A DNA stretch of 56,139 nucleotides, taken from the NCBI GenBank assembly GCA_903882905.1, contig CAIRYW010000017.1:1-56139 (forward strand), read 5' to 3'. This document shows positions 11,197 to 55,855 of this stretch, one piece after another. The position numbers and the translations under genes are program-made. Under the pieces are notes generated by a model. It had not been told where the DNA came from, did not search any database, and was given only the letters and a program-made list of their open reading frames with translations. Origin of the DNA: an uncultured bacterium (lineage in GTDB: Bacteria; Patescibacteriota; Minisyncoccia; Phycocordibacterales; CAIRYW01). The first letter of the stretch is position 1. Every line of letters starts with the position of its first letter.

Positions 11197-11923
11197 ACTC
11201 CAAATTCAAAATCACACTGAAGCAACCAAAAAACTTGGTCAAATAAAGGACGAAGTGATTTTATTCATAAAATCAAACAAAAATATCTATGAAAAAGATG
11301 TTTTAGATTTTATAAAAAAATCTTACAAAAAACACGGACTAGTAAATGATAGTAAAAAGGAATTTGCCATTGTAGCTTTTGGAAAAAATACCAAAGAAGT
11401 TCACTATTTTCCCAAAAAACAGGGTCAGAAGCTAAAAGCGAACAGCTTGATTTTACTTGATATTTGGGCTCGTTTAGATAAGCGAAACTCCCCTTATGCA
11501 GATATGACATGGATGTTCTATTTTGGAAATAAAGTTCCAAGTCAAATTCAAGAAAAATGGAAGGTACTAGCAGATGCTAGAGATATTGCAATTGAATATA
11601 TAAAAAAAGAAATCAGAAAAGGAAAATTACCTAGAGGTCTTGATATAGACAGAATATCTCATGATGTTATTGGGAAGTCAGGATTTGGAGAAAATATAAA
11701 ACATACAATTGGTCACTCCCTTGGATTTGATCATCCACACGGAAAACTACCAGGTATAAATTGGCGAGAATACTCCCCTATTTTAAAAAATGTCGGGTAC
11801 ACTGTTGAGCCTGGAATGTATTTTAGTGATTTCGGAATGAGAACAGAAATAGATTTTTATATATCAGAAAAGAATGAAATCGTTGTAACAACTCCAATCC
11901 AGAGCAAAATTGACACACTTTAA
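11171..11923 (+). CDS. M24-family metallopeptidase (catalytic domain only)
   Basis: LLDIWA...YADMT, HTIGHSLG, TVEPGMY, GMRTE. Confidence 0.85.
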   Translation: MESSHSWTKLQIQNHTEATKKLGQIKDEVILFIKSNKNIYEKDVLDFIKKSYKKHGLVNDSKKEFAIVAFGKNTKEVHYFPKKQGQKLKANSLILLDIWARLDKRNSPYADMTWMFYFGNKVPSQIQEKWKVLADARDIAIEYIKKEIRKGKLPRGLDIDRISHDVIGKSGFGENIKHTIGHSLGFDHPHGKLPGINWREYSPILKNVGYTVEPGMYFSDFGMRTEIDFYISEKNEIVVTTPIQSKIDTL

Positions 11924-11938
11924 TTTTTAGTGTATTTT
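11910..11938 (+). promoter_or_regulatory. Sigma-70 promoter of the orphan gene at 11950
   Basis: TTGACA-N17-TATTTT, ATG 11 nt downstream. Confidence 0.55.
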
Positions 11939-11949
11939 CAATTCGGCTT

Positions 11950-12309
11950 ATGAAAATATTCTTCTCTGTTCTTGGTATCTGGCATGGACTGCTATGGGCA
12001 CTAATCTCTTCTGGAACGATCCAAATAATCGACGCAGTTCCAAAAATCGATGCGAACCCCTTTGTGAATTTGCCAAACACACTATTGCGGATTGTAGGAG
12101 TCTTCGTAATTTTGTCTGCGGCATTTTTTGTGACGAAAGCGGTTGCAATAGGGATAACAGTACTATCCTTCACAAAAACATCCCTTGAGGATCACCGTAG
12201 AGGTCTGGAAGACCCAAAATGCATCACTTGTTACAAATGGTGTGGAGGCTTAGCAGGCTTACTGACATCAGGTCTATGGATATTGATGTACTTTTCATTT
12301 TCAAAATGA
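11950..12309 (+). CDS. Orphan membrane protein (about 3 TM, CxxCxxxC)
   Basis: 119 aa, richer in GC than its neighbours, own promoter and terminator. Confidence 0.6.
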   Translation: MKIFFSVLGIWHGLLWALISSGTIQIIDAVPKIDANPFVNLPNTLLRIVGVFVILSAAFFVTKAVAIGITVLSFTKTSLEDHRRGLEDPKCITCYKWCGGLAGLLTSGLWILMYFSFSK

Positions 12310-12319
12310 ATCGATACCC

Positions 12320-12342
12320 AAGCGCGAACAGCGCTTTTTTTT
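12320..12342 (+). terminator. Intrinsic terminator
   Basis: aagcgc-gaaca-gcgctt followed by a T-run. Confidence 0.65.
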
Positions 12343-12351
12343 ATAATTTTT

Positions 12352-13335
12352 TTACTTATCCCAACTAAAACCGTTTCCAAAGTGTCCGTATTTTGCAGTC
12401 TCACGAAATTGTGGGTCACGAAGTTTTAGAAATTCTATAATTGCTTTTGGTTTCAAATCATATCCTTTTATTTCTTCCTGTACTCCGTCAATATCTGCAA
12501 CTGCCATAAGTGGTTCAGCAACCCCAATAGCATATGCAAGATGTACGAATACTTCCTTCGCATTTCTTGCTTTCAAATAATCAACAGCAATTCTACGTGC
12601 CATATATGCAGCACTTCTATCTACTTTTGTGGCATCCTTTCCAGAAAAGCAACCGCCCCCAACAGGAATATTTGGTCCATAATTATCTACTGCAAGTTTT
12701 CTCCCTGTAAGTCCTGTGTCTGCTGCAAATCCTCCGATTGTCCAAACTCCGTTTGGGTTTTGCATCCAAACTTTTTGTAATTCTTCCCATGCACCATCAA
12801 AGTGCGGCAAGACTTTTGCTTTCATTACTTCTTCAAGTTTTACATCAGACATATCTCCGCTTGTACAAAGTGATGTCAAAACTTTTACAACTTTTCCATT
12901 ATTTACTGTGACCTGACTTTTACCATCGTGTCTTCCCATAGCTTTTGCAAGCTCACGAGAAAGCACAACCTCAAGCGGAAGAAATTCTAGAGTTTCATTG
13001 CACGCATATCCCACCATTATTCCTTGGTCGCCCGCTCCCTCTTGATCAACACCTGCTCCAATCTCAGGACTCTGCTCCACCACGTTTACATTCACTCCAA
13101 TATTTTCATCATACCCACAATCTTTGTAAACTTCCTGAGCAATTTTTCTCATGTTTACATAACCTGAAGTAGTAAGTTCACCTGTAATAGAAATAATACC
13201 GTGGCCTCCCATAGTTTCTATTGCTACACGAGATTTTGGATCTTGTGCAAGACATGCATCCAAAATTGCATCTGATATTTGATCACAGACTTTATCTGGA
13301 TGACCGACTGAGACACTTTCTGCTGTTTTTAACAT
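12352..13335 (-). CDS. metK: S-adenosylmethionine synthetase (compact, about 327 aa)
   Basis: ESVSVGHPDKVCDQISD, GAGDQG, GGGCFSGKDATKVDRS; start MLKTAES at 13335. Confidence 0.95.
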   Translation of the reverse strand: MLKTAESVSVGHPDKVCDQISDAILDACLAQDPKSRVAIETMGGHGIISITGELTTSGYVNMRKIAQEVYKDCGYDENIGVNVNVVEQSPEIGAGVDQEGAGDQGIMVGYACNETLEFLPLEVVLSRELAKAMGRHDGKSQVTVNNGKVVKVLTSLCTSGDMSDVKLEEVMKAKVLPHFDGAWEELQKVWMQNPNGVWTIGGFAADTGLTGRKLAVDNYGPNIPVGGGCFSGKDATKVDRSAAYMARRIAVDYLKARNAKEVFVHLAYAIGVAEPLMAVADIDGVQEEIKGYDLKPKAIIEFLKLRDPQFRETAKYGHFGNGFSWDK

Positions 13336-13390
13336 ATTTTTATAAACAATTAGTCCGCAACTAGCGGACCCCAAGATTAGAATATGACTA

Positions 13391-13482
13391 TTATCTTCCC
13401 TTGAGGGTTGGATTTGGCACCTTTTCTTTCGATGGTTGCCGGACAGATCACAAAGCCAATTCTTTCCCTGTCCTCTTGATAA
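13391..13482 (-). ncRNA. SAM-I riboswitch aptamer upstream of metK
   Basis: Minus strand TTATCAAGAG-gacag...ctgtc-CGGCAACC...GGTGCCAAATCC...GAAGATAA; P1 ttatc/gataa, pseudoknot ttggc/gccaa; downstream hairpin 13353-13369. Confidence 0.9.
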
Positions 13483-13513
13483 CTATTAAGTTGTGATAAT
13501 ATCTTAGCATTGT

Positions 13514-13936
13514 ATGAAAAAAACTCAAGAAAAAAAAGTATTAGTTTTTGGGACTTTCGACCATATTCATCCTGGACATATCTATTTTCTAAATGAAGCT
13601 AAAAAACTTGGAAATTTAACTATATCTGTTGCTTCTGACGAAAGCGTCTCTTCAAGAAAAAAAATAAAACCCTTAAAAAGTACTTCATCAAGAATCAAAG
13701 ATCTAAAAAGCCTAAAAATCTCAAACGAAATAATTTCTGGTGATAAAAAATTAGGCAACTGGTCAACACTTAAAAAAATAAATCCGGATATAGTTGCAAT
13801 CGGCTACGACCAAAAAGAACTAGAAATTGCTCTGAAAGACCTAAAGAAAAAAAATAATTTTAAATTTACAATCAAAAAAATCTCCGCAAAAAATCCAGAA
13901 AAATACCATTCAAGTATTATAAAAATCAAAAAATAA
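13514..13936 (+). CDS. Cytidylyltransferase-family nucleotidyltransferase (RibL/TagD-like)
   Basis: FGTFDHIHPGH (HxGH), PDIVAIGYDQ, HSS. Confidence 0.82.
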   Translation: MKKTQEKKVLVFGTFDHIHPGHIYFLNEAKKLGNLTISVASDESVSSRKKIKPLKSTSSRIKDLKSLKISNEIISGDKKLGNWSTLKKINPDIVAIGYDQKELEIALKDLKKKNNFKFTIKKISAKNPEKYHSSIIKIKK

Positions 13937-13945
13937 TTTTTAAAC

Positions 13946-14545
13946 ATGCAATACCTTGATCCCATTTTTTTAATCAATACGTTAGGGCTAGTTGGAATTC
14001 TCTCAATAATTTTTGCTGAATCAGGATTGTTTTTTGGTTTCTTTCTTCCTGGGGATTCATTAATTTTTACTGCGGGTTTACTTGCCTCTCAAAATTATTT
14101 AAATATTTGGATACTCGTGTTACTTGGATCAATTTGCGCAATCCTCGGAGACAGTGTTGGATATGCTTTTGGTAAAAAAATTGGACCAAGAATTTTCACA
14201 AAGGAGGATTCCTTTTTCTTTAACAAAAGTCATATTACCCGTTCACAGATTTTTTTTGAAAAATACGGAAAAAAAGCTCTGATCCTGGCAAGATTTGTAC
14301 CAATCATTCGTACATTTACTCCTATTATTGCTGGTGTTGGAAAAATGCCCTACAAATCATTCATTACTTACAACATTATTGGTGGTGTAAGTTGGGTCAC
14401 ATTAATGTCAGGTCTTGGTTACTTTTTTGGAAAGATTATTCCAAATCCAGATAAATATAGTTTACCTGTGGTGATACTGATTATTGTCATATCAGTCATC
14501 CCTAGTATTATCGAATTTCTTAGAAATAACCGAAGCTCCCAGTAG
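13946..14545 (+). CDS. DedA-family membrane protein
   Basis: FAESGLFFGFFLPGDSL, LARFVPIIRTF. Confidence 0.92.
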   Translation: MQYLDPIFLINTLGLVGILSIIFAESGLFFGFFLPGDSLIFTAGLLASQNYLNIWILVLLGSICAILGDSVGYAFGKKIGPRIFTKEDSFFFNKSHITRSQIFFEKYGKKALILARFVPIIRTFTPIIAGVGKMPYKSFITYNIIGGVSWVTLMSGLGYFFGKIIPNPDKYSLPVVILIIVISVIPSIIEFLRNNRSSQ

Positions 14546-14566
14546 GACCGACCTACCCCACTTTAC

Positions 14567-14622
14567 ACCACAAGGGTACTTCTTATTTTCTAATTCCTTT
14601 TAGTCATAAGAAAACAAAGTCG
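14567..14622 (+). repeat. Dispersed intergenic repeat, copy A (inverted relative to 44650-44690)
   Basis: accacaagggtacttct (14567-14583) is the exact reverse complement of 44674-44690; both copies also share a hairpin and an agtcg end. Confidence 0.75.
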
Positions 14623-14731
14623 TCCACAGGTGCCGACAATTAATTTTTATATAAGAAATCCTTGCTATAAAGAGAGAAAAATGTTTTAATTGTGATACGG
14701 CTTGAGGCCGTTTTTTGTTTAAATAAATAAC

Positions 14732-16528
14732 ATGGAAATCAGAAATATAGCTATAATCGCTCACGTAGACCACGGAAAGACCACTCTAACAGACGCTTTG
14801 ATGCGCCAGACTGGAATGATCACAACCGATGTATCAATGGACTCAAACGCCCTAGAAAAGGAGCGTGGTATTACTATTTATGCAAAAAATACATCTATTT
14901 TTTATAAAGACACAAAAATCAACATCGTAGATACACCGGGCCACGCCGACTTCGGTAGCGAAGTAGAGCGCGTCTTGCGTTCAATCGACTCAGTTCTTTT
15001 AGTTGTTGACGCACAAGAAGGCCCAATGCCACAAACACGTTTTGTACTAAAAAAATCTTTAGAGCTTGGACTTAAGCCAATTGTTATTTTAAACAAAATT
15101 GATAAACCTGCTGCAGACCCAAAAAGAGTTCATGATGAAGTTCTTGAACTTTTTATTGATCTCGGAGCAAACGATGAACAATTAAACTTCCCTATGGTCT
15201 ACGCTATCGGCCGAGAAGGAATCGCAAAGAAAAATCTTAGCGATGAAAGCGACAATTTAAATCCAATTCTCGATACAGTTCTCGAGCACGTACAACCAGC
15301 AAATACAAAAGATGACATCCCTCTTAAAGCTCAACCTTTTAATCTTGCGTATGACAATTTTCTTGGACGTATGGCAGTCTGCAGAATTTATGAAGGAACA
15401 ATTACGGATGGAGAAACTGTTGTTGTAAAAAAAGTAAACGGCGAGACAAAAAGTTATCGCCTAACAAAACTTTATACATTTGAAGGAATTGTAAAGAAAG
15501 AAGTTAAACAAGCTCACTCTGGAGATATTGTAATGATTGCAGGAATTCCCGATATTTATATTGGAGATACAATTTGTCACGATGCCACACAGGAAGCACT
15601 TCCTGCTATCAATGTTGATGAGCCAACTATTTCTCTTGAATTTTTTGTTAACGATTCCCCTTTTGCAGGAAAAGAAGGAAAATTTGTAACAACTCGTCAG
15701 ATTAGAGATAGACTGGAAAAAGAATTAGAAGTAAACATTGGACTTAAAGTTGATTTTTCAGAATCAGATAGATTTAGAGTGCACGGCAGAGGAGAACTTC
15801 ATATTGCAATTTTACTTGAATATATGCGTAGAGAAGGTTTTGAACTTTCTGTTTCTCAACCACATGTAATTATCAAAGAAGAAAATGGTAAAAAATTAGA
15901 GCCGTACGAAGAAGTAACAATTGATACTCCGGAAGAATACAGTGGGGCTGTTATTGAGAAACTCGGAAAACGAAAAGGTATTATGCACAACATGAAACAA
16001 GAAGGTTCTCAGGTACGAATCATTTTTGAAATTCCAACACGTGGTCTTTTAGGTTATAAAAATCAATTTGTTATTGATACTAGAGGTGAAGGAATTATTT
16101 GCTCACGTTTTATTGGTTTCCAAGAATACGTAGGTGTTATTGAAAAAAGAGAGACTGGCTCTATGGTTTCTATGGAAGCAGGAAAAGCTCTGGCCTTTGC
16201 ACTGGATAACCTACAACAAAGAGGAGTTCTATACATTGGGGCTGGAACAGAAATTTATGTTGGACAAGTTATAGGAGACACATCAAAAGGTGAAGATATT
16301 GATGTAAACCCAACAAAAGGAAAACAACTTACAAACATGCGAGCCTCAGGATCTGATGGAACAACTTACCTCACACCTCACCAAGAAGTTGATATCGAAA
16401 AAGGCCTTGAAATTATGCACGATGATGAACTACTTGAGATCACACCAAAATCTGTCCGCCTACGAAAAAGATACCTAACAAAAATAGATCGCGACCGCGC
16501 CGGCCGAAGAGCTAGAGGTTTGGAATAA
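14732..16528 (+). CDS. typA: Translational GTPase TypA/BipA
   Basis: [51 protein letters not shown]. Confidence 0.97.
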
Positions 16529-16538
16529 TGATTTGAAA

Positions 16539-16937
16539 CTAAAATAAATATTTATATTTAGGATAATGTTCTTTTATCATTTCCTTCCATTGTGTTGTTT
16601 CATTTTTACTACTTAAATCAGTTTTACCGTATACAAGCAATATACAGACTTGATTAGTATTTTTATTTATAGCTACGATACATCTATTACCCGAACTATG
16701 ACGAGATTCTTGAGTGCTAGAAATTTTAAATTCCGTTTTACAAACCACAATGTCTGCATTTTTGTCAGTAATGTACTCTGCAATTTTTTTTAAAAACAGA
16801 ATATCAATTTTTTCAAACTCCTCAATTATAGTTCTTAAAGTAAAATCCCATGCTCCTTTATATTTCTTTTCAAAAGATTTAATAAAATGCCTTTCTGCAA
16901 AAGGTTCAACAATGACTTCATACTTAATAGACTTCAT
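16539..16937 (-). CDS. Putative RelE/HigB-like toxin
   Basis: 132 aa, overlaps the antitoxin stop; SSGNRCIV...ILLVYGKTD resembles the RelE/HigB GxR...LLxYxK pattern. Confidence 0.55.
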   Translation of the reverse strand: MKSIKYEVIVEPFAERHFIKSFEKKYKGAWDFTLRTIIEEFEKIDILFLKKIAEYITDKNADIVVCKTEFKISSTQESRHSSGNRCIVAINKNTNQVCILLVYGKTDLSSKNETTQWKEMIKEHYPKYKYLF

Positions 16938-17616: not shown

Positions 17617-17652
17617 ATGAACAATTATATAGAAAACCTGTAAAGAAGTCAA
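17597..17652 (-). promoter_or_regulatory. Sigma-70 promoter of the TA operon overlapping a perfect 40-bp palindrome
   Basis: TTGACT(17652-47)-N17-TATAAT(17629-24)-N7-ATG; palindrome 17597-17636. Confidence 0.8.
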
Positions 17653-17670
17653 ACAAATTTAGTCGAATTA

Positions 17671-17698
17671 TTGACATATACAATGTATACCATAAAAT
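17671..17698 (+). promoter_or_regulatory. Divergent sigma-70 promoter for the small ORF at 17744
   Basis: TTGACA-N16-TAAAAT; near-palindrome tatacaatgtata in the spacer; flanked by the direct repeat ttagtcgaa (17659, 17711). Confidence 0.6.
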
Positions 17699-17743
17699 AA
17701 ATACATAGGATTAGTCGAACCTAAATAAATTGAATAAAAAAAC

Positions 17744-38914: not shown

Positions 38915-38917
38915 GTG

Positions 38918-38952
38918 TAGCTATCAGCTTTTAGCTGTTAGCTATTAGCTTA
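38918..38952. repeat. Heptamer tandem array directly upstream of trmD
   Basis: tagctat cagcttt tagctgt tagctat tagctta. Confidence 0.75.
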
Positions 38953-38986
38953 AAGAAAAACATAATAAAAGCAAATATAGCTTTAC

Positions 38987-39014
38987 AAAAAAATACCCCT
39001 AGCGAACTAAGGGT
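38987..39014 (-). terminator. Intrinsic terminator of the GC-rich mini-unit
   Basis: Minus strand acccttag-ttcg-ctaggggt followed by a T7 run. Confidence 0.7.
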
Positions 39015-39050: not shown

Positions 39051-39176
39051 CTACTTGCCGTCGTCGGTCTTGGCAATTTGCGATCCGCGGCGCCGGCTGC
39101 TGAAACGGTCTGACCGGCGCGAACCGGGTTTAATTCCAATCGGGGTTTGTTTGCGGGCTTTGTTCTCTTGGCTCAT
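39051..39176 (-). CDS. 41-aa Arg/Ser-rich orphan ORF or structured RNA (missing from the ORF track)
   Basis: MSQENKARKQTPIGIKPGSRRSDRFSSRRRGSQIAKTDDGK; 73/126 GC by hand count; promoter TTGACG-N17-TAACTT at 39215-39187. Confidence 0.45.
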   Translation of the reverse strand: MSQENKARKQTPIGIKPGSRRSDRFSSRRRGSQIAKTDDGK

Positions 39177-39220
39177 ACAGCTTTAAAAGTTACACCAATG
39201 TTAAAATTTCGTCAATAGTT

Positions 39221-40031: not shown

Positions 40032-40106
40032 TTGTCATTCCCGCGAAAGCGGGAATCTAGGGTTTTACTACATACATCTGGATTCCCGCTTTCGCGGGAA
40101 TGACAA
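40032..40106. repeat. REP-like dimeric palindrome (ATTCCC-N8-GGGAAT core, dRS3/RPE-like)
   Basis: ttgtcattcccgcgaaagcgggaatctag ... ctggattcccgctttcgcgggaatgacaa. Confidence 0.85.
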
Positions 40107-42635: not shown

Positions 42636-43454
42636 CTACGGATTCACCTCACTAAAGCTAGCATTGATGTAGCAAGTAGCATATTTGGTAGAGGTACCAG
42701 TTGTGGTAGTTGTTGCTCCTGTTATTGGATTGGGGAGGTTTTCACCACAAGTTAGTTTGTATTGTGTTTCTTTGGTAACTTTGCTGTCGTTGAATGTTTT
42801 AGGTGAAAGAATAGGATAAGTATAGGTTTGATCACCTTGAGCTGAGCCTGTAAGAGTACAAGTTGAGTATTTATCTTCTGTTAGTAGGTTAAAGACTGGA
42901 CTGCAATTTCCTCCTGTACCATTAGTTGAATTGTATGGATTGATGGTGTTAGCTTTGAAATCTTTTATTACTACTTGTCCTGAAGGAAGATTAGTACCTC
43001 CGTTTGTCTCTATATATATTTGTGCGGCTGATTTTGTACATGTAAGGGTTGTAGGGTTACAAGTTGAACCTACGCCATTTACAGCTACACAATCCTTGTC
43101 TGGATTACATCCGTCGACTATCTTTGTTCCCGAGCAAGCGAGTTTTGGGGTGCAGACTACGGGGGTTGGAATGACAGTGCCCACAGAGCCACCACTATTA
43201 TTAACAGGTGGATAATATACTGGGGGAGGAGGTTGAGGTGGTGGACAATTTTGTCCTAAAACAGCGCACCTTTGATCTCCACCATAATGAGTATTACCTA
43301 TATTAAAATTCCCACAACCTGAATCTGAATAGCAAACATGTCCTTTTTTACAACTTTTAGCTTCTGCTTTGGGAGCGTTTATACCAAAAGCAAATACAAT
43401 TGCAAAAACAAAACCTGAAATCAGAAATAATTTTTTCATATTTTTGGTATTCAT
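42636..43454 (-). CDS. Secreted Cys-rich, Pro/Thr-rich protein
   Basis: Signal peptide ending AEA, many Cys, CPPPQPPPPVYYPP segment. Confidence 0.75.
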   Translation of the reverse strand: MNTKNMKKLFLISGFVFAIVFAFGINAPKAEAKSCKKGHVCYSDSGCGNFNIGNTHYGGDQRCAVLGQNCPPPQPPPPVYYPPVNNSGGSVGTVIPTPVVCTPKLACSGTKIVDGCNPDKDCVAVNGVGSTCNPTTLTCTKSAAQIYIETNGGTNLPSGQVVIKDFKANTINPYNSTNGTGGNCSPVFNLLTEDKYSTCTLTGSAQGDQTYTYPILSPKTFNDSKVTKETQYKLTCGENLPNPITGATTTTTGTSTKYATCYINASFSEVNP

Positions 43455-43459
43455 ATATC

Positions 43460-44539
43460 TTATTTGTTATTTCCCAAATTAATAATAGATTGATTTATTT
43501 TTGCTTTCATATCAGATTTTTCTAACATTCCGAGAGTAATATCTGTATCAACTAGACTTAATGCTTTATTGTAGGCTTCTTTAGCTTTTGATTTGTCTCC
43601 CGTTGCTTCCAATAAAAGTCCTTTTACAACATAAGCGAATGAATCATTACCATAAAAACTTACCGCCTTTTCAATATCCTGGTCAATTTGATTTTTTAGG
43701 GATTCATTCTTTACTACATAATCATTGAGTAAAATTTTGGCATACGCCCTGTTTGCATATGCGTTACCATATTTATCATATGAATCAATCGATTTGGAAA
43801 AATCATCTATTGCAATTTGATAATTCCCAGAGTCTATTTCTGCCAGGCCAAAAATTTCATAGGCTGTAGCTTTTACATATGCAATCTGAGTTACATCGAT
43901 AGCAGCTTGCGCATATTTTTTTGCATTTTCAAAATCACCTTTTCCTTGAGCAATTCTTGCTAAGTTCATTAAAGCAACGTCATTTTTACTATCTATACTG
44001 TAAGCTTTTATGTAATCAGCTTCAGCAGAGGTTAGGTCACCAGATAGATCATACGCATGACCTCTTTTTACGTAACCAAGTGGAGAATCTGGATAAAGTG
44101 CAATAGCTTTATTGTATTGTTCTAATGCTTTAGAGTAATTTTGTAAGACTTCGTAAGAATATCCGAGAACTAAGTCTGCTTGATACTCTTGATTTTTGTC
44201 TGGACTATTTGCAAGAACCTCATTTGCTATAGCAATAGCTTTATTTCCATATTCTACTTCTTTGAACTCTAGACTAGCTTTTTCCAGATACGCATTGGCC
44301 AAATCAATTTTGGATTGATTGTCATTATTAGAACTTACTAACTGTTCAGCTATTTGTACTTCTTTTTCAACATCTCCAGATTGAGCATTTTTCATCAATT
44401 CATCGTTTAGAATAGTTTGATTATACTCGGCAAGGGAAATAATCTTACCGTTTTGAATTGTATAAAACTTTAAAAAGACGAATATCGATAAACCTAAGAG
44501 AACAATCACAATAAGGGAGATGATAAAATATTTTTTCAT
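43460..44539 (-). CDS. Membrane-anchored tetratricopeptide-repeat protein
   Basis: N-terminal TM; repeated TPR patterns such as LGYSYEVLQNYSKALEQYNKAIALYP. Confidence 0.88.
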   Translation of the reverse strand: MKKYFIISLIVIVLLGLSIFVFLKFYTIQNGKIISLAEYNQTILNDELMKNAQSGDVEKEVQIAEQLVSSNNDNQSKIDLANAYLEKASLEFKEVEYGNKAIAIANEVLANSPDKNQEYQADLVLGYSYEVLQNYSKALEQYNKAIALYPDSPLGYVKRGHAYDLSGDLTSAEADYIKAYSIDSKNDVALMNLARIAQGKGDFENAKKYAQAAIDVTQIAYVKATAYEIFGLAEIDSGNYQIAIDDFSKSIDSYDKYGNAYANRAYAKILLNDYVVKNESLKNQIDQDIEKAVSFYGNDSFAYVVKGLLLEATGDKSKAKEAYNKALSLVDTDITLGMLEKSDMKAKINQSIINLGNNK

Positions 44540-45242: not shown

Positions 45243-45998
45243 TTAGACTTCGATTTTTGAGAACATTTTTGCACCAATAAACATAACAATCAAAACTAAA
45301 ATTGAAATAATAGTTAAATCAAACCCTACTCCGAAATGGGCTGCGCCAGAAAGAGTCCCTCTCAGAGCATCAACTCCATAGGAAAGAGGATCTAACCTAG
45401 TGACAATCTCTAAGGCTTTAGGCAAACCATCAATTGGAAACAAAGCACCGGAGAGAAAAAACAAAGGCATAACAAGAAAATTTATTATTATTTGAAATCC
45501 CTGCATGTCATCAAGTCTAGAACCGATAGCTGTGCCAAGTGCTGTAAAAAACAAAGCAATCAAAAACATTGCAAGAAATGCCACAGGAAGCATAGTAAGA
45601 GAAATTGGTCTAAATCCCACAAAAAAAGTCAAAGTAAAAACTACCAAACCTTGTATCATCGCAACAGTAGCTCCACCAAGTGTTCTTCCTATCATTATGT
45701 AAATACGAGAAACAGGAGCAACTAAAGTTTCTTTTAAATAACCAAACTGCCTGTCCCAAATTATTTCTATACCAGAAAAAATAGATGTAAAAAGAATACT
45801 CATACACATTACTCCGGGTGCCAAAAATTGCATATAATTTCCTCCTCCAGCTTTTGCGTAAATAGGACCAAATCCGAAACCAAGAGCCACTAAAAATAAA
45901 ATTGGCTGGCCAAGTGAACCGATCATTCTAGATTTTGATCGAACGTATCTTTTTAATTGTCTAAGCCAGAGTATGTATATTATTTTGAGGTTTTTCAT
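45243..45998 (-). CDS. ABC-2 type exporter permease (DrrB-like)
   Basis: DRQFGYLKETLVAPVSR, PLFFLSGALFP, PLSYGVDALR. Confidence 0.9.
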   Translation of the reverse strand: MKNLKIIYILWLRQLKRYVRSKSRMIGSLGQPILFLVALGFGFGPIYAKAGGGNYMQFLAPGVMCMSILFTSIFSGIEIIWDRQFGYLKETLVAPVSRIYIMIGRTLGGATVAMIQGLVVFTLTFFVGFRPISLTMLPVAFLAMFLIALFFTALGTAIGSRLDDMQGFQIIINFLVMPLFFLSGALFPIDGLPKALEIVTRLDPLSYGVDALRGTLSGAAHFGVGFDLTIISILVLIVMFIGAKMFSKIEV

Positions 45999-46035
45999 AT
46001 ATTTTTGTTATGAACGTAGTGAATTAGAAAAATAA

Positions 46036-46167
46036 TGACCCTGTTAAATAAAATTTGATTATCACTTCGCTTTGTTTATTTTCATTACTCATTTTTGTTT
46101 ATATTAATCATTTATTTTAACTTCTAATCAAATTTTAATTTTTTGAAAAAATTATTTAACAGGGTGA
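46036..46167. mobile_element. MITE-like element with terminal inverted repeats and flanking TGA direct repeat
   Basis: tga-ccctgttaaataa ... ttatttaacaggg-tga; internal inverted repeat aaaatttgatta/taatcaaatttt. Confidence 0.6.
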
Positions 46168-46199
46168 GTAATTTATACTCGCTTTGCTCGTTAAATTAC

Positions 46200-46988
46200 T
46201 CAATGTTTCCAACGTCTAGCCATTCTTGAAGCTCCATTTTCTGCACCTTCATCCCTTATCTGTTTACCAGTGAGTGCCAAAAAAGCATCCTCTAAACTTT
46301 TTGTATTAGTCTTTTTTTTCAAATCATCTGGACTGCCTTCTGCAACAATTTTTCCATGATCAATTACTGCAATTCTATCTGCATTTCTTTCTGCCTCCTC
46401 CATATAATGAGTCGTAAAAAAGACTGATAAACCTTCCTTTTCACGCAGTGCCTTTATATGAGTCCACATATTATTTCTTGTTTGTGGATCAAGACCAAGA
46501 GTCGGCTCATCCAAAAATAAAACTTTTGGATGGTGAAGAAGACCGCGAGCAATCTCTAAACGCCTTTTCATTCCTCCTGAAAAATTTTTTACTAAATCAT
46601 TTTTTCTATCCCATAAATCAACAAGCTTCATAAGTTCTTCAATTCTTCGTTTATACAAAATTTTCTGTAGTCCATACATCACTGCATGAATTTCCATATT
46701 CTCGTAAGCAGTAAGCTCAGTATCGAGTGATGGATCTTGAAAAATAATCCCAAAAGAATTACGAACTTCATTGGGATTTTCTAAAACGTTAGAACCATCA
46801 AGTATCACTTCACCTGATGTAGGGACAAGAAGTGTTGTCAGCATTCTTATGGTAGTGGTCTTTCCTGCACCGTTTGGTCCTAAAAACGCAAAGGCTTCAC
46901 CCTTTTTTACATTAAAAGAAATATTTTTTACCGCTTCAATTTCATTAAAATTTTTTACTAATTTTTTTACTTCAATAATGTTTGGCAT
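46200..46988 (-). CDS. ABC exporter ATP-binding protein (DrrA-like)
   Basis: GPNGAGKTT, FSGGMKRRLEIARG, DEPTLGLDPQ, TTHYMEEA; start MPNIIEV at 46988. Confidence 0.93.
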   Translation of the reverse strand: MPNIIEVKKLVKNFNEIEAVKNISFNVKKGEAFAFLGPNGAGKTTTIRMLTTLLVPTSGEVILDGSNVLENPNEVRNSFGIIFQDPSLDTELTAYENMEIHAVMYGLQKILYKRRIEELMKLVDLWDRKNDLVKNFSGGMKRRLEIARGLLHHPKVLFLDEPTLGLDPQTRNNMWTHIKALREKEGLSVFFTTHYMEEAERNADRIAVIDHGKIVAEGSPDDLKKKTNTKSLEDAFLALTGKQIRDEGAENGASRMARRWKH

Positions 46989-47001
46989 ATTTAAAAAATT
47001 A

Positions 47002-47175
47002 TTAATTAAGCTGTTGTCCGATTTTGAATCCAACCCAGATTCCTACTATGGCAAAGACGGCGCTGAGGACAAGTGATGACGATGAAAACATATCTCCTCC
47101 CCAGAGGGCTGGAATATAACCTCCAACAACCGAACCGATTGTCATGAAGATAAAAACTAAAGATTTTGTACTCAT
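47002..47175 (-). CDS. Small Gly-rich two-TM membrane protein, 57 aa (missing from the ORF track)
   Basis: MSTKSLVFIFMTIGSVVGGYIPALWGGDMFSSSSLVLSAVFAIVGIWVGFKIGQQLN; fits tightly between fba and the ABC ATPase. Confidence 0.75.
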   Translation of the reverse strand: MSTKSLVFIFMTIGSVVGGYIPALWGGDMFSSSSLVLSAVFAIVGIWVGFKIGQQLN

Positions 47176-48041: not shown

Positions 48042-48112
48042 ATAAATATTTTATCACAAATCTACACACTAAGTTTGCAAACTTACCCAATAACTAATAA
48101 TATTGAAAACAA

Positions 48113-48313
48113 ATGAAAACGTACAATGATGATCCCTCCTCTTTTGAGGAAGACGGCCCACTTCGGATGACTTTCTTATTAGCCTTCGTATTCGGATTGC
48201 TCGGGATCCTCTGGATTTACGAGACAGTCAAAAAGGGCTTCTGCCTCATGCGGAACGCCTGGAGTTCCTGGCTGGAAGAAGGAAGAAAGCTCGATAAACA
48301 TCGTCTTTGGTAA
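48113..48313 (+). CDS. Orphan single-TM small protein
   Basis: 66 aa, about 47% GC by hand count; promoter TTGCAA-N17-TAATAT (48075-48103). Confidence 0.55.
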   Translation: MKTYNDDPSSFEEDGPLRMTFLLAFVFGLLGILWIYETVKKGFCLMRNAWSSWLEEGRKLDKHRLW

Positions 48314-48316
48314 CTC

Positions 48317-48347
48317 GCTAAGCCCTTACTGCTTAGCATTTTTTTTT
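48317..48347 (+). terminator. Intrinsic terminator
   Basis: gctaagc-ccttact-gcttagc followed by a T9 run. Confidence 0.8.
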
Positions 48348-48356
48348 GTATAATTA

Positions 48357-48551
48357 TAAGAACCTATCAAAAAAATAATGAACTTTACAAACAGCAAAAT
48401 TTTGAAGGAAAAAATGAAGGATGAGGAAGAAGGTTTAATTATATTAAGCCGACTGACGAAACTTAATTTTTTACCAAAATTTTGCCGTTTGGATGTTCAA
48501 GTGTCGGATTTAGGTATTTTTATTAACGGTTATTTTTTAGATAGGTTCTAA
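48357..48551. mobile_element. MITE-like element with terminal inverted repeats and flanking TAA direct repeat
   Basis: taa-gaacctatcaaaaaaataa ... ttattttttagataggttc-taa; internal inverted repeat aaacagcaaaattttg / caaaattttgccgttt. Confidence 0.65.
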
Positions 48552-48552
48552 C

Positions 48553-49560
48553 ATGTTTAATTCAAAAAAATATGATCTAATCGCAATCGGGGATACTGTC
48601 ACCGATGCTTTTATTCGCTTAGAAGAAGCTCATGTAAATTGCAAAGTAAATACAGAAGAATGCGAAATTTGTATGCGCTTCGGAGATAAAATTCCTTACG
48701 AATTTGTTGAGGTTTGTCCTGCGGTCGGAAATTCTGCAAACGGTGCTGTTTCTGCATCGAGACTTGGACTCAAAAGCGCAATCATCACAAACATCGGTAA
48801 TGATTCAGAAGGACTTGATGCCCTAAATCAATTTAAAAAAGATAAAGTCAGTACTGAATTTGTTGTAACAAACAAAGGAATGAAAACCAATTATCATTAT
48901 GTGCTTTGGTTTGAGTCAGATAGAACTATTCTTATCAAACACGAAAAATATCCCTATGCCCTGCCAAAAATGAAAGCACCGAAATGGATTTATTTAAGTT
49001 CACTTGGTGAAAATTCTTTGCCTTTTCATAAAACGATTGAAGAATATTTAATAAAAAATCCTGAAGTAAAATTGGCTTTTCAACCAGGTACTTACCAAAT
49101 GAAGTTTGGAACTGAAGCGCTAAAAGAAATTTATAAAAGAGCTGATGTCTTTTTCTGTAATATTGAAGAAGCTGAAAGAATTCTTAGAATTCAAAGTAGA
49201 GAAAATATAAAAGAGCTTGCAAAAAAGATTGGTGACCTTGGACCAAAAATAGTTTGCCTAACTGATGGAGCAAATGGTGCCTATGTATATGAAAAATCAA
49301 AAGACACTCTTCTCTTTATGCCGCTTTACCCAGATATCAAACCTCCCTACGAACGAACAGGAGCAGGAGATGCTTTTGCTTCAACTTTTACTTCGGCTTT
49401 GATTAAAGGAAAAACTCTTGAAGAGGCTTTGGTGTGGGCACCGATAAATTCCATGTCTGTAGTCCAGCAAATCGGTGCACAAAAAGGACTTCTCACAGAA
49501 CAAAAACTTTTAGAATATTTAAAAACCGCTCCTGCAGAATATAAACCAAGACTTGTTTAG
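48553..49560 (+). CDS. PfkB-family carbohydrate kinase
   Basis: GNSANGAVSASRLG, NIEEA, TDGANG, RTGAGDAF. Confidence 0.9.
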   Translation: MFNSKKYDLIAIGDTVTDAFIRLEEAHVNCKVNTEECEICMRFGDKIPYEFVEVCPAVGNSANGAVSASRLGLKSAIITNIGNDSEGLDALNQFKKDKVSTEFVVTNKGMKTNYHYVLWFESDRTILIKHEKYPYALPKMKAPKWIYLSSLGENSLPFHKTIEEYLIKNPEVKLAFQPGTYQMKFGTEALKEIYKRADVFFCNIEEAERILRIQSRENIKELAKKIGDLGPKIVCLTDGANGAYVYEKSKDTLLFMPLYPDIKPPYERTGAGDAFASTFTSALIKGKTLEEALVWAPINSMSVVQQIGAQKGLLTEQKLLEYLKTAPAEYKPRLV

Positions 49561-49563
49561 ATT

Positions 49564-50205: not shown

Positions 50206-50351
50206 TTTATTTCTTCATTATCTCATTAAAAATCTGACATCCCAAACTTGCTCAAGGGTAGCCCTTGAGCGTTAGAGTTGACAAAAATAGTAAAAGTAGT
50301 ATAATACTGCTAAAGCTAAAACCTAGCTTTTCTAATAAATAATTCAAAAAT

Positions 50352-51998: not shown

Positions 51999-52003
51999 TC
52001 TTT

Positions 52004-52039
52004 AAAACAGCCGAGGCGCTTAAGCGCCTCGGCTGTTTT
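52004..52039. terminator. Bidirectional terminator, perfect 36-bp palindrome
   Basis: aaaacagccgaggcgctt-aagcgcctcggctgtttt between convergent genes. Confidence 0.85.
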
Positions 52040-52040
52040 T

Positions 52041-53054
52041 TTAAATATCAATTTCTCCACTCTGAATTTGTTGTTTTAAATTTACATCAGAAATTGATGC
52101 CATGAAATCTAACATTTTTTGCTTTTCTATTCCGTCTGAAAAACTAGGAACTGAATCATTTATGACTACAGGAAGAATAGATATATTTTCTCCATTATTT
52201 GTCTTTGTAATTTGAAGAGCAATTGCATGGGTAGTTCCATAAGAAAAATTCTGATCAAAAACAAAATTACCTAAAGAATAAAAAATTGGTTTGTTATTAT
52301 AAATTTCAACGCCCTCTACAACATGCGGATGAGACCCAATAACCATATCTGCTCCACTATCAATCATCAATCTTCCGTTTTTTTTCTGTAAGTCGGTTGG
52401 GTAATCTTGATACTCAACTCCCCAATGTGGCATTACGATTACAAAATAATTCACATCTTTTAGTTCCTTTATTAAATCAAGAGTATGGTCAACCTTTCCA
52501 CCAAATTCATTCCAACCAATAAACGCTATTTTGAAACCATTTTCATTAAAAGTGGCAACCCTATCATCTTTATTAAAATAATCTCCAAAAGGCTGTATAT
52601 TTATGCTTTTCAAAAAATCATAAGATTGCCTTATTCCTTCAAGCCCAAAATCATTATTATGATTATTTGCCTGCGAGAGTGCATCAAAACCAACATTTTT
52701 CAAAATATTTAAAACGGAAGGATTGAAAGTAAATTGTAAAATTGTGTGATCTTGCGCTGAAATAGAATTAAAATTTGTTATAACGCCTTCAAGATTGGCA
52801 ACCGAAATATCAGAATTTTTTATTTGTTCTGTTGTAGAAGCAAAAATATAATTTTGTCCAAATTGATTAATTCTCAATCTCACCTGCCTATCAAGCATCA
52901 CATCACCTGCAACAAAGATACTGAGTTTATTTTCTGGAACTTGGATAGGAACAACAACTAGTTTTTCTTGAGCAGTATATTTTGGAAAAAAAATTACAAA
53001 TAATAAAAGTAAAGTAAAAATAGAAAGAAGTAATATTAATATTTTAGTTTTCAC
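52041..53054 (-). CDS. CapA-family (PGA_cap) metallophosphoesterase
   Basis: GDVMLDR, NLEG, ANNH, PHWGVEY, GSHPHV, YSLGNF; probable GTG start at 53054 after aaggaaa. Confidence 0.88.
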   Translation of the reverse strand: MKTKILILLLSIFTLLLLFVIFFPKYTAQEKLVVVPIQVPENKLSIFVAGDVMLDRQVRLRINQFGQNYIFASTTEQIKNSDISVANLEGVITNFNSISAQDHTILQFTFNPSVLNILKNVGFDALSQANNHNNDFGLEGIRQSYDFLKSINIQPFGDYFNKDDRVATFNENGFKIAFIGWNEFGGKVDHTLDLIKELKDVNYFVIVMPHWGVEYQDYPTDLQKKNGRLMIDSGADMVIGSHPHVVEGVEIYNNKPIFYSLGNFVFDQNFSYGTTHAIALQITKTNNGENISILPVVINDSVPSFSDGIEKQKMLDFMASISDVNLKQQIQSGEIDI

Positions 53055-53073
53055 TTTCCTTATAATTTTTCTT

Positions 53074-53107
53074 GAGGAGAGACCTCCAAAAAAAGAGGAC
53101 TCACCTC
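53074..53107. repeat. Imperfect hairpin downstream of gyrB
   Basis: gaggagagacctc-N8-gaggactcacctc (2 mismatches). Confidence 0.5.
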
Positions 53108-53115
53108 TAAAAAAT

Positions 53116-55185
53116 TTAGATATCCAATCTTGCCATTTTTGCGTTTGATTGGATGAAAGATTTTCTAGCTGGAACATCATTTCCCATCAAAATATCTACT
53201 ACCTTATCTGCCTCAATTGCATCCTCAATATTTATTTGCTTTAGCACTCTGTTGTTTTTGTCCATTGTAGTTTCTCCAAGTTCTTCGGCATTCATTTCTC
53301 CAAGACCTTTGTATCGCTGAATAGTAACTTTTTTATTTACTTTCTTGTCTTTTTCTTTTCCGCCTTTTTCATCCACTTCCTCCTCAGGCGTTTCTTCTGT
53401 GGCACCTTCCTCACCTTCTGAAACTTCTGTTATTTGAATTTTTTCATCTTTCAAAAACTTTTCTTTTTCTTGTTCAGAATAAAAATAATGAAAATCTTTT
53501 CCAAGTTTCAATTTGTAAAGTGGTGGTTGAGCAATATAAATATATCCAGCTTCGATTAAAGGTCTGAAGTGTCTATAGAAAAGAGTTAAAAGAAGAGTTC
53601 TAATGTGCGCACCGTCAACGTCGGCATCTGTAGCGATAATAATTTTGTGATATCGAAGTTTTGTAATATCAAATGTATCTCCAATAGCAGTTCCAAGAGC
53701 AACGACAAGATTTGTAATTTGTTCAGACGCGAGCATCTTGTCCAATCTAGCTCTTTCAATATTTAAAATTTTTCCTCGAAGGGGCAAGATTGCTTGAGTT
53801 CTTCTATCTCGTCCAGTTTTTGCAGTACCTCCAGCAGAGTCTCCCTCTACAATAAATAGTTCTGATTCTGAAGCATCTTTACTTTGGCAGTCGGCAAGTT
53901 TTCCAGGTAAAGTCATTCCCTCAAGTGCGCCTTTTCTTAGGATTGAATCCTTTGCCGCTTTTGCGGCTTTTCTTCCGCGCATCGCAAGAATAACCTTATT
54001 CATTATAGCTTTTGCGTCATCTGGATTTTCTTCCAAATACATTGAAAATGCATCACCCAAAACAGTAGATACTGCTCCTTGCGCTTCCATGCTTCCAAGT
54101 TTTGCTTTTGTTTGTCCTTCAAATTGAATTTCAGGAAGTTTTACAGAAATAACAGCGGTAATTCCTTCAAGCACATCGTCTCCGATAAAACTTTCATCTG
54201 CTTCTTTTGTATAACCATTTTTTTTGGCGTAAGTATTGATTGTTCTTGTGAGAGCGGTTTTGAAACCAGTAATGTGTGTTCCTCCTTCTGGGTTGTAAAT
54301 ATTATTCGCGAAACCTGCAATTTTTGCAGAAATATCATCGATGTATTGGATAGCAACTTCAACCAAAGTTTTTCCTTCTTCTTTTTCTACATAGAAAATA
54401 TTTTTGTGAATGGGTTTTGAGAGAGTGTTATAAAATTTAATTAGTGATACTAATCCTCCTTCAAAATAAAAACTAACAGAAGGAACATCTAGACTTTCAT
54501 CTTTCAAAAAGAATACTTCATCAAAATTAATTTTTTCTTTATACTCCCTGGCATCAACCACATTAATCAAAAGATTTTTTACAAGGTAAGCTTGCTGGCG
54601 AAGATGAGTTACTATTTTTTCGTAGTTAAATTCAATTCCCTCTTTAAAAATTTCAATGTCGGGTTTGAAAGTGGTAATAGTTCCGTGCTCTTTTGAGTTT
54701 GCAACTTTTTTTACTTTGCTAAGTGGTTTTCCTATTTTATATTCTTGAAGATATTTTCCTCCGTCTCTGTGCACTTCTGCTTTGAGGTGTATTGATAGTG
54801 CATTTACAACTGATGCTCCCACTCCGTGAAGTCCTCCAGAAAATTTGTAAGAATTATTATCAAATTTTCCTCCAGCGTGAAGAACTGTCATAATAGTTTC
54901 AAGAGCAGAAACTTTTGTTTTGGAATGCATATCAACTGGAATTCCGGCTCCATCATCAACAATTCGAACATATCCGTCAGGAAGAAGAGCTACTTCAATT
55001 CGAGAACATCTATTTGCCATAGCCTCATCGCGAGAGTTATCAAAAATTTCCCAAACTAAATGATGAAGACCATCTGGTCCTGTGGTTCCAATATACATTC
55101 CAGGTCGTCTTCTAACCGCTTCAAGACCCTCTAGGACAGTAATCTGAGCCGCTCCATATTGCTGTTTTTTTTCTGGTTTAACCAT
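53116..55185 (-). CDS. gyrB: DNA gyrase subunit B
   Basis: RRRPGMYIG, SGGLHGVGASVVNALS, VEGDSAGG, PLRGKILN, DADVDG, QRYKGLGEM; start MVKPEKK at 55185. Confidence 0.96.
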   Translation of the reverse strand: MVKPEKKQQYGAAQITVLEGLEAVRRRPGMYIGTTGPDGLHHLVWEIFDNSRDEAMANRCSRIEVALLPDGYVRIVDDGAGIPVDMHSKTKVSALETIMTVLHAGGKFDNNSYKFSGGLHGVGASVVNALSIHLKAEVHRDGGKYLQEYKIGKPLSKVKKVANSKEHGTITTFKPDIEIFKEGIEFNYEKIVTHLRQQAYLVKNLLINVVDAREYKEKINFDEVFFLKDESLDVPSVSFYFEGGLVSLIKFYNTLSKPIHKNIFYVEKEEGKTLVEVAIQYIDDISAKIAGFANNIYNPEGGTHITGFKTALTRTINTYAKKNGYTKEADESFIGDDVLEGITAVISVKLPEIQFEGQTKAKLGSMEAQGAVSTVLGDAFSMYLEENPDDAKAIMNKVILAMRGRKAAKAAKDSILRKGALEGMTLPGKLADCQSKDASESELFIVEGDSAGGTAKTGRDRRTQAILPLRGKILNIERARLDKMLASEQITNLVVALGTAIGDTFDITKLRYHKIIIATDADVDGAHIRTLLLTLFYRHFRPLIEAGYIYIAQPPLYKLKLGKDFHYFYSEQEKEKFLKDEKIQITEVSEGEEGATEETPEEEVDEKGGKEKDKKVNKKVTIQRYKGLGEMNAEELGETTMDKNNRVLKQINIEDAIEADKVVDILMGNDVPARKSFIQSNAKMARLDI

Positions 55186-55221
55186 CCTTTTTATTTGAAT
55201 TTGATTGAAAAAAATTACATT

Positions 55222-55267
55222 AAGTCCCGACGTTTCAGTCGGGATCCCGACTGAAACGTCGGGACTT
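55222..55267. repeat. Perfect loopless 46-bp palindrome in the gyrB leader
   Basis: aagtcccgacgtttcagtcggga|tcccgactgaaacgtcgggactt; extended -10 TGcTATAAT on the minus strand at 55296-55288. Confidence 0.9.
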
Positions 55268-55357
55268 TTTTGGCTTTTTGTCCTTATATTATAGCATTTT
55301 TTGAGTAAATAAATCAGCATTGACAGACATATTTATTAGTGGTAACTTTGAATAGAT

Positions 55358-55783
55358 ATGAACACTGACACGACTGCTCTTGATTCACTCAAGGGCGAAG
55401 AAAACCCACGCAAACAAACCGAGGCTCTGTTGAACAGTTTCAACGACATCAACGGCCTCACTGCAGCAGTGGACGTCATTGGCTTCTACAAAGAAGTTCA
55501 TTCACTCTGGTACGTGTACCAGCAGATTGAATACAATGCCCTATCGCCCGAGCTGTACAAAGAAAAACAGTTCCGGCAATCTGGACTTGACGCAGCGAGG
55601 AGAAGTTGCCTCGACAGGATGGTCACGTTGTGCCTGCAAGCAAAAGGCAAACAACGCAGGCGACTCTACTGCGAATTCAAAGTGACCATCAACTCAATGG
55701 ACCAAAACCGCTACGTCTGCATAAGTGGAAGGAAGGCTCTCAGCCGAGTTCCCTTGTGGCTCTACTGGGGAAGTTGGAAATAA
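55358..55783 (+). CDS. Orphan hypothetical protein
   Basis: 141 aa, visibly GC-richer; promoter TTGACA-N17-TAACTT (55320-55348); terminator-like hairpin 55805-55840. Confidence 0.65.
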   Translation: MNTDTTALDSLKGEENPRKQTEALLNSFNDINGLTAAVDVIGFYKEVHSLWYVYQQIEYNALSPELYKEKQFRQSGLDAARRSCLDRMVTLCLQAKGKQRRRLYCEFKVTINSMDQNRYVCISGRKALSRVPLWLYWGSWK

Positions 55784-55855
55784 CCAGCTGCGCACATTCT
55801 CATCACCGTCTCTCGCTTCATGTGATTGACGGTATTTTTTATTTTCACTTTTTGC

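Follow-up and report, generated by a model that had tools for sequence, protein, structure and literature searches.

Four open reading frames (ORFs) in the stretch of DNA analysed here (contig CAIRYW010000017.1, 56,139 nucleotides, hereafter the window) had been singled out in a preliminary description as a dispersed family of GC-enriched mini-cassettes with one shared architecture. They lie at 11950-12309 (+ strand), 39051-39176 (−), 48113-48313 (+) and 55358-55783 (+) and are called o1 to o4 below. Our analysis makes it reasonably probable that they are four unrelated, independently transcribed, monocistronic accessory small genes of an AT-rich genome of the Paceibacterota that does without Shine-Dalgarno (SD) sequences. 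At least two of them, o3 and o4, appear to have been stably inherited after a lineage-specific gain, and for none of the four is there support for a capture mechanism, an RNA family or a role in defence. Only the persistence of their GC-rich codon composition, and perhaps also their −35-type promoters, goes beyond the routine.

Inheritance of o3 and o4

The Fba protein encoded in the window has its nearest matches in metagenome-assembled genomes of Paceibacterota/Parcubacteria (86% identity in L001, 75% in L002 and at most 65% in the rest), and on that evidence the host is a bacterium of the Candidate Phyla Radiation (CPR)/Patescibacteria, within the Paceibacterota. Our comparison set comprised 59 loci from relatives, with L001 and L002 covered to 10 kb on either side. 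When the window proteins were searched against these loci with tblastn, the gene order from gyrB to the DUF3298 gene proved to be kept in both L001 and L002, the neighbouring proteins being 62-90% identical to those of L001 and 43-83% identical to those of L002; the nucleotide identity of the flanking coding sequence to L001 is 0.80-0.86.

The o3 ORF encodes a predicted single-pass membrane protein of 66 aa, with a transmembrane (TM) segment at residues 15-40 and a proportion of G+C at third codon positions (GC3) of 0.582. Its putative promoter at 48075-48103 (+), read from the sequence and compared with those of the orthologues, consists of a −35 box TTGCAA, a 17-nt spacer and a −10 box TAATAT, followed after 9 nt by the ATG; it is kept in L001, and its counterpart in L002 is TTGATA-16-TAACAT. 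The terminator at 48317-48347 (+), called by the scan tool, is formed by GCTAAGC...GCTTAGC and a T-run, and its stem is kept in L001 and L002. Between fba and pfkB, L001 carries a homologue of 65 aa (8622-8819, −; 36% identity over 55 aa, E = 9e-8, tblastn), and L002 has an ORF of 69 aa in the same position (9714-9923, −); all three proteins have the C-terminal motif G-x-KL-x-K-x-x-LW. The comparison of syntenic loci that the preliminary description had proposed as a check did reveal empty sites. Both fba and pfkB are present in 17 of the 59 loci and are divergent in 12 of these; in nine of the 12 (L004, L009, L011, L012, L013, L014, L015, L017 and L019) the gap between them is only 31-150 nt and free of ORFs, and the remaining three are L001 and L002, with o3 as in the window, and L016, with a different insert of 1244 nt. 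o3 thus has the appearance of a lineage-specific gain at a site that is empty in more distant relatives. A 57-aa ORF just downstream, at 48378-48551, was not counted as a gene, because it is not conserved in L001.

The o4 ORF (141 aa, GC3 0.606) encodes a soluble, all-helical protein, judged from its homologues and from an AlphaFold2 (AF2) model with six helices and a pLDDT of 78 that had no match in the PDB at E <= 0.001. At 55320-55348 (+) its putative promoter has a −35 box TTGACA and, after 17 nt, an extended −10 (TGg-TAACTT), with the ATG 9 nt beyond; in L001 it is kept with a 16-nt spacer. Two terminators follow at 55805-55885 (+), ACCGTC...GACGGT with a T-run and then a GC-rich hairpin of 12 bp, which the convergent gene has in common with o4, and counterparts of both are present in L001. 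The L001 homologue (169 aa, 250-759, −) also lies beside gyrB and is 37% identical over 135 aa (E = 1e-26, tblastn); o4 is absent beside gyrB in L002. A word-seeded search with o4 returned the query alone, missing the L001 homologue that tblastn found, and a profile built from the two proteins gathered a family of four among 1.84e9 representatives, namely both queries and two further proteins at E = 1.4e-15 and 1.3e-10. All four have the motifs R-x-x-C-V-x-x-M, G-x-x-RR and, at the C terminus, PLWLYWGSW[KR]. We rejected the idea that o4 belongs to a more extensive foreign island, since the gene convergent with it is 79% identical to its L001 counterpart and the conserved block upstream is gyrB's own TGcTATAAT promoter.

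Both proteins evolve about five times faster than their neighbours. Against L001 the number of nonsynonymous substitutions per site (dN) is 0.50 for o3 and 0.56 for o4, compared with 0.097 for fba; in each the nonsynonymous difference is below the synonymous one (pN < pS), and synonymous sites are saturated. Nucleotide identity to L001 is 0.55 in the o3 ORF (0.46 in its 5′ part, 0.76 in its 3′ part) and 0.43 in the o4 ORF, beside 0.86 in the o3 terminator and 0.58-0.69 in the promoters. Insertions and deletions come in multiples of three, one frame is conserved at the amino-acid level, and the −35 and −10 boxes, the gap of 9-11 nt to the ATG and the terminator stems are all kept. With their syntenic protein homologues, kept promoters and terminators, and pN < pS, o3 and o4 look like real, fast-evolving, lineage-restricted protein genes that are inherited together with their signals. 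Three elements of the earlier picture fall away: the four units do not form a family, since they have neither sequence similarity nor repeats in common; fast turnover is at odds with an o3 that is syntenic in three genomes and an o4 that is syntenic in two, each with kept promoter and terminator across saturated synonymous divergence of the host; and neither capture machinery nor att-like repeats were found that would speak for a capture process. As judged from the relatives, the set of small genes lying between core genes is indeed variable, but a gene once gained is retained.

Persistence of a GC-rich codon composition

The hand counts of 58% and 47% GC given earlier for two of the ORFs, as evidence that the units lie above the host genes, agree with our values of 57.9% for o2 and 47.3% for o3; o1 and o4 have 41.4% and 49.5%. 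At third positions the excess is larger. GC3 is 0.39, 0.67, 0.58 and 0.61 in o1 to o4, against 0.226 +/- 0.029 (maximum 0.296) in the 46 host genes of the window that served as reference throughout, which places the four ORFs 5.7 to 15 standard deviations over the host mean. The bias extends evenly over each ORF but not beyond its start codon, GC being 0.25-0.32 in the 60 nt before each ATG. The orthologues are GC3-rich too (o3, 0.59 in L001 and 0.54 in L002; o4, 0.51 in L001), in genomes whose host genes have median GC3 values of 0.21 (L001) and 0.37 (L002).

This persistence can be set against the rate at which synonymous sites have changed. Eight orthologue pairs from the window and L001 provide 892 four-fold degenerate host sites with a GC fraction of 0.176; 30 of these sites are G or C in both genomes, where 27.6 would be expected under independence. 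Under a two-state model exp(-2*lambda*t) is 0.018, so that about 0.13 of an initial excess would be retained per lineage, an estimate that comes from a simple model with a wide error and for which we calculated by hand an upper bound on the retention per lineage of about 0.35. Any GC3 excess that predates the split should by now be down to roughly 0.26-0.46, however extreme its starting value, yet o3 and o4 stand at 0.51-0.61 on either side. Of the codons for identical residues, 31 of 54 in o4 and 17 of 24 in o3 also agree in their third base; for o4 this is, on a rough estimate, close to random expectation, suggesting that sites turn over while composition stays. Since the GC3 excess has been kept while GC/AT states at synonymous sites of the host have been fully randomized, active maintenance is suggested, and we infer that selection acting on GC, codons or mRNA keeps the synonymous composition GC-rich. 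Otherwise the genes would have been imported repeatedly, or the decay rate would have been estimated too high.

Translational selection alone is a weakened candidate for such maintenance, as G-ending codons rise too and the likely well-expressed TypA and RpoB/C reach just 0.31-0.37 for NNC. Should selection be the cause, the loci would make a small, naturally occurring test case for selection on synonymous GC in a strongly AT-biased, reduced genome; whatever the cause, a gene-specific GC3 of 0.5-0.6 persists beside neighbours at 0.2 across saturated divergence.

Outliers in GC3 also occur elsewhere: crude ORF calling in 14 loci gave 21 among 261 calls, a few of which are perhaps spurious frames. 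In other AT-rich loci of Patescibacteria, genes with a GC3 of 0.45-0.59 against 0.30 lie at 3094-3573, 7174-7392 and 16949-19172 of L016 and at 3712-4350 of L021, and several of these are small membrane proteins with TM segments.

Promoters, terminators and the expression style of the host

The signals ascribed to the units were found where they had been placed. The strings and positions of four −35/−10 pairs, each with a spacer of exactly 17 nt, were all reread correctly; the distance from the −10 box to the ATG is 11, 10, 9 and 9 nt in o1 to o4; an SD-like 4-mer at −18 to −5 occurs in none of the four; and a hairpin with a T-run lies 3′ of every ORF, called by the scan tool for o2, o3 and the second hairpin of o4 and read by eye for o1 and the first hairpin of o4. 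As a description of self-contained, monocistronic, GC-enriched and lineage-restricted units the earlier account is supported. Its proposed search pattern, TTGnnn-N17-TAnnnT-N9-11-ATG, matches the window four times and each match is one of the units, but the pattern was fitted to them post hoc, and four matches lie within what a first-order Markov model predicts (3.2 +/- 1.7), so there is no enrichment. In o2 and o4 the −10 box, TAACTT, falls short of the consensus rule of the scan tool, which asks for at least four of six positions in the −10. What lends the promoters credibility is that their boxes are kept in the orthologues.

The architecture does not serve as a cassette signature. An SD-like 4-mer was present at −18 to −5 in only one of the 46 host genes, leaving 45 that are SD-less like the units, compared with 214 of 1534 control ATG triplets; a −10-like TAnnnT ended 3-14 nt ahead of the start in 21 of 46 (controls, 337/1534), and in the same range a TG-extended −10 was found in 8 of 46 (controls, 26/1534). 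Clear host examples of a −10 box beside the start are at 2739, 7861, 8680, 13514, 39221, 40866, 47178 and 49564. From these counts, SD-free and largely leaderless expression appears to be the style of the whole genome, not specific to the four units, and their layout is not a cassette hallmark because the organism seems to express promoter-proximal genes in this way generally. The window, which has a GC content of 34%, carries among its core genes rpoB, rpoC, rpoD, dnaG, gyrB, typA, metK, trmD, fba, hisS and truB, in addition to ABC transporters, a Type ISP restriction-modification system and an HTH-SocA antitoxin.

An anti-SD motif is reported to be detected in only 48% of Parcubacteria (PMC9297842), and the style of this host fits the subgroup reported there to lack it. 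There is also a likeness to the leaderless 'group C' genomes of GeneMarkS-2 (Actinobacteria, Deinococcus-Thermus), which are defined in the account of PMC6028130 by a Pribnow box about 10 nt from the starts of first-in-operon genes: the four units and many host genes have a −10 about 6-11 nt before the start and no SD. The organism here, in contrast, belongs to the Paceibacterota, and its internal genes are without SD sequences as well. In full-text searches, no account of leaderless expression or of small genes with deviant GC3 in Patescibacteria came up, only incidental mentions and the anti-SD observation of PMC9297842. For annotation this means that in this CPR lineage neither a missing SD nor a −10 box next to the ATG is out of the ordinary, and gene callers and human readers should attach no special meaning to them.

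Origin of the units and alternative explanations

We propose that each unit would be transcribed from a sigma-70-type promoter into an mRNA starting at, or a few nucleotides from, the ATG, and would be ended by an intrinsic terminator of its own, because the neighbours are divergent, convergent or separately transcribed. The genes would have been gained in the host lineage, probably as foreign DNA from a GC-richer source, and thereafter inherited vertically while their proteins evolved fast; selection on the transcript or its codons, for expression level or for the stability of short leaderless mRNAs, may then have held their synonymous composition. Two marks usual in horizontally acquired atypical genes are seen here, namely a deviating composition in all four units and a patchy distribution of o3 and o4. 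The foreign origin, the selection on GC3 and any function are our deductions, as are the start of transcription, translation and abundance, which we infer from sequence.

These last count against our reading, as does the wide error of the decay estimate, and several observations must be added to them. C- and G-ending codons are both increased in the units (NNC, 68/101 or 0.67 vs 0.25 in the host; NNG, 27/74 or 0.36 vs 0.21), with C+G at four-fold sites at 0.50 in the units vs 0.18 in the host, and this joint rise looks more like general GC content than like classic codon optimization. The o1 protein has no homologue anywhere searched (the word-seeded search returned the query itself alone, and phage and plasmid collections gave no match), and the o2 frame is no longer than chance would allow (P(open) = 0.28). 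Moreover, the −35 box matches at five or six of six positions in three of the four units, vs at least five of six in none of the 46 host genes at the start calls used, and most of the four promoters have no TG extension and poor −10 boxes, unlike typical host promoters; −35-type promoters may thus mark a distinct regulatory class that a reading of the units as ordinary genes underplays. Three host sites make the contrast less sharp: TTGACT-17-TATAAT-7-ATG at 17652 (−), a short way into the HTH-SocA gene as called, TTGATA-18-TATCTT-8-ATG at 13476 and a perfect TTGACA-16-TATAAT at 50278. We therefore keep in view, as a tentative extension with perhaps one chance in a few of being right, a distinct class in SD-less Patescibacteria, made up of lineage-specific small genes that are leaderless and monocistronic, have −35-dependent instead of extended −10 promoters and keep their GC3 by selection against AT-biased mutation. 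If such a class exists, GC content might set the stability or translatability of short leaderless mRNAs, and GC3 would be a readable mark of membership.

A clearly less likely account of the composition is that these are passively ameliorating genes from GC-richer donors, for example GC-rich Paceibacterota, whose GC3 excess has not been erased or which were re-acquired or exchanged by recombination after the split. Such an origin would agree with a composition like that of genes from a genome with about 50-58% GC, GC3 exceeding both GC1 and GC2, and with the joint rise of both codon types; loci of 51-54% GC do exist among the Paceibacterota relatives (L010, L009), and the distant o4 homologues P0004 and P0005 look, by eye and uncounted, rich in Ala, Arg, Gly and Pro, as in GC-richer genomes. 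Atypical genes average 8-9% of prokaryotic genes according to PMC6028130, and replacement of alleles through flanks, which are better conserved than the ORFs, could give the same picture. The decay calculation speaks against it, for with host four-fold states randomized between the window and L001 both lineages lie above the expected range, and the deeper L002 still has 0.54. Recent exchange between the lineages is disfavoured in particular, as the o3 and o4 proteins are far more diverged than their neighbours. Atypical or ORFan genes in general resemble the units in a GC and GC3 far from those of the host, the lack of family annotation and a narrow distribution that excludes more distant relatives; the deviation here is, however, toward higher GC in an AT-rich genome, and syntenic orthologues keep it across saturated synonymous divergence, which plain amelioration does not predict.

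That some or all of the units are small structured or regulatory RNA genes with incidental ORFs, as the preliminary description had allowed, is improbable, and would apply best to o2. This unit combines 58% GC, a promoter, two hairpins and a T-run with an ORF of chance length, lies just upstream of trmD on the same strand, has no protein homologue and, unlike o1 and o4, is missing from the protein database. Local GC peaks with promoter and terminator in an AT-rich genome do recall the GC-rich islands that mark structured RNA genes. At the gathering threshold of Rfam 15, however, the only match in the window is a SAM riboswitch ahead of metK (13388-13485) and none of the four units is hit; permissive scans of the units gave sub-threshold hairpin matches only, none credible, and ARAGORN found no tRNA or tmRNA. 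Transcript folds, terminators included, have z-scores of +0.05 (o1), -0.94 (o2), -1.49 (o3) and -2.82 (o4), of which the last alone would favour an RNA. A structured RNA of the kind of RNase P, tmRNA, 6S, SRP or a riboswitch was rejected on these three lines, and o3 and o4 are conserved as amino acids in one frame with indels in threes, although their ORF nucleotides are only 43-55% identical. Of the suggestion of RNA-level units there is left o2, whose coding status is unproven.

Least likely are mobile cassettes of a site-specific system, integron-like or novel, and small toxins or defence effectors, whether of the type I toxin-antitoxin or the anti-phage kind. Single units do sit between core genes, relatives show presence, absence and a different insert at the same site, and the window has other genes of defence type in its Type ISP restriction-modification and HTH-SocA antitoxin genes. 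Integron cassettes are promoterless, carry an attC site and are arranged in arrays next to an integrase. The four units resemble them as short single-gene units of variable content among relatives, but are dispersed over 44 kb, each with its own promoter and terminator; each promoter has been passed on along with its ORF and terminator at a syntenic position, and there is no integrase or transposase among the annotated genes of the window. The earlier remark that no integrase or att-like repeat is visible stands. No attC-like site was seen, the sole hairpins of the units being terminators followed by T-runs; no repeat is common to the four among the repeat families listed, and the direct repeats in their flanks are only 7-mers, a chance level equalled or exceeded in 129-156 of 200 shuffles. 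Candidates for type I toxins would be two predicted small membrane proteins, o3 with 66 aa and a single TM segment and o1 with 119 aa and several hydrophobic stretches, each in its own transcription unit; o4, in contrast, is soluble and o2 basic. No antisense promoter or RNA was detected: among the sites listed by the promoter scan, the closest on the minus strand downstream of o3 is at 48919, with none in the first 500 nt or so. No Rfam antitoxin family matched, the best (fstAT) reaching 17 bits against a gathering score of 72 and lying beside o2, not inside it. A role as defence or host-interaction effectors, suggested earlier, finds no support: PADLOC-DB 2.0 gave no family at E <= 0.1 for the four ORFs and five homologues, neither the ORFs nor their homologues matched anything in PHROGs, Pfam or NCBIfam, phage and plasmid collections had no match for o3, o4 or the o2 transcript, and the ESM Atlas returned for o1 and o3 only uninformative unnamed clusters below 0.9.

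The units o1 and o2

The o1 promoter (−35 TTGACA, 17-nt spacer, −10 TATTTT, 11 nt to the ATG; 11910-11938, +), read from the sequence and matched to the pattern, overlaps the final codons of the upstream M24-peptidase gene, whose stop is at 11923. Its ORF of 119 aa (GC3 0.392) is unlikely to be open by chance (P = 6e-4 for such a length given its own composition), and hydropathy segments predict a multi-pass membrane protein. A hairpin AGCGC/GCGCT with a T-run, read from the sequence at 12320-12342 (+), would terminate it facing the convergent metK. The flanking genes of o1 turned up in none of the 59 loci.

On the minus strand, o2 has a putative promoter at 39187-39215, identified by reading and pattern matching (−35 TTGACG at 39215, 17-nt spacer, −10 TAACTT), 10 nt from the ATG at 39176. 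The ORF (GC3 0.667) would encode a very basic peptide of 41 aa with 12 Lys and Arg residues, and the scan tool places a terminator with an 8-bp hairpin and a T-run at 38986-39014, about 75 nt upstream of trmD. The word-seeded search of the protein database gave nothing, not even o2 itself. The position of o2 is a break in synteny, as genes other than trmD follow the DUF3298 gene in L001 and L002. o2 may be a basic peptide or a small RNA.

Between o2 and trmD, five tandem 7-nt units (AGCTAAT AGCTAAC AGCTAAA AGCTGAT AGCTACA) lie at 38916-38950 on the minus strand and stop a single nucleotide short of the trmD start codon (38914); the period according to TRF is 7, with 4.7 copies. In the intergenic region of the divergent DUF3298 gene and rsmG there is an inverted repeat at 40032-40106 with 29-nt arms that are 97% complementary (TTGTCATTCCCGCGAAAGCGGGAATCTAG...).

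Other features of the window and its relatives

Two new small protein families, o3 and o4, are defined here by conserved motifs and syntenic anchors (fba/pfkB and gyrB), and real small genes such as these are easily missed in annotation. A further case is a 57-aa ORF with two TM segments at 47002-47175 (−), between fba and an ABC ATPase gene, which is kept in L001 (75%) and L002 (51%); it is a real small gene hidden by longest-ORF calling, and its GC3 of 0.38 is mildly raised.

The gene convergent with o4 (55914-56139, −) runs off the window; its counterpart in L001 lies at 3-119, where that contig ends, the two being 79% identical over 39 aa, and its GC3 of 0.40 is also above the host level. 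Within the gyrB leader, between a putative extended −10 (TGcTATAAT, minus strand, 55288-55296) and the gyrB start near 55185, there is a perfect 46-nt palindrome at 55222-55267 with a 20-bp stem (AAGTCCCGACGTTTCAGTCGGGA/TCCCGACTGAAACGTCGGGACTT), which is absent from L001.

L001 has further small genes where the corresponding junctions of the window are tight. The first, at 12734-12985 (+), encodes an 83-aa protein with a TM segment and CxxC...CxxC and has a 40-nt leader containing AGGA; another, at 6754-7296 (+), encodes a 180-aa protein with a weak LPD3 match and is followed by a GC-rich stretch of 160 nt. Conversely, genes for a hypothetical and a TPR protein, and an ABC-2 permease and ATPase pair (42636-44539 and 45243-47033), are missing from the syntenic stretch of L001 and L002 and represent larger accessory insertions with host-like GC3.

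The perfect promoter in the segment 50278-51998 stands 46 nt upstream of the gene for a 548-aa protein without a family match, which has internal 99-nt repeats (51202/51646) and 21-nt repeats rich in Asn and Tyr. In the segment 16539-21057, the HTH-SocA (Panacea) antitoxin gene and an adjacent 132-aa ORF lie beside a split Type ISP restriction-modification gene pair, and a TTGACA-16-TAAAAT promoter at 17671 (+) is aimed into a region of short ORFs only.

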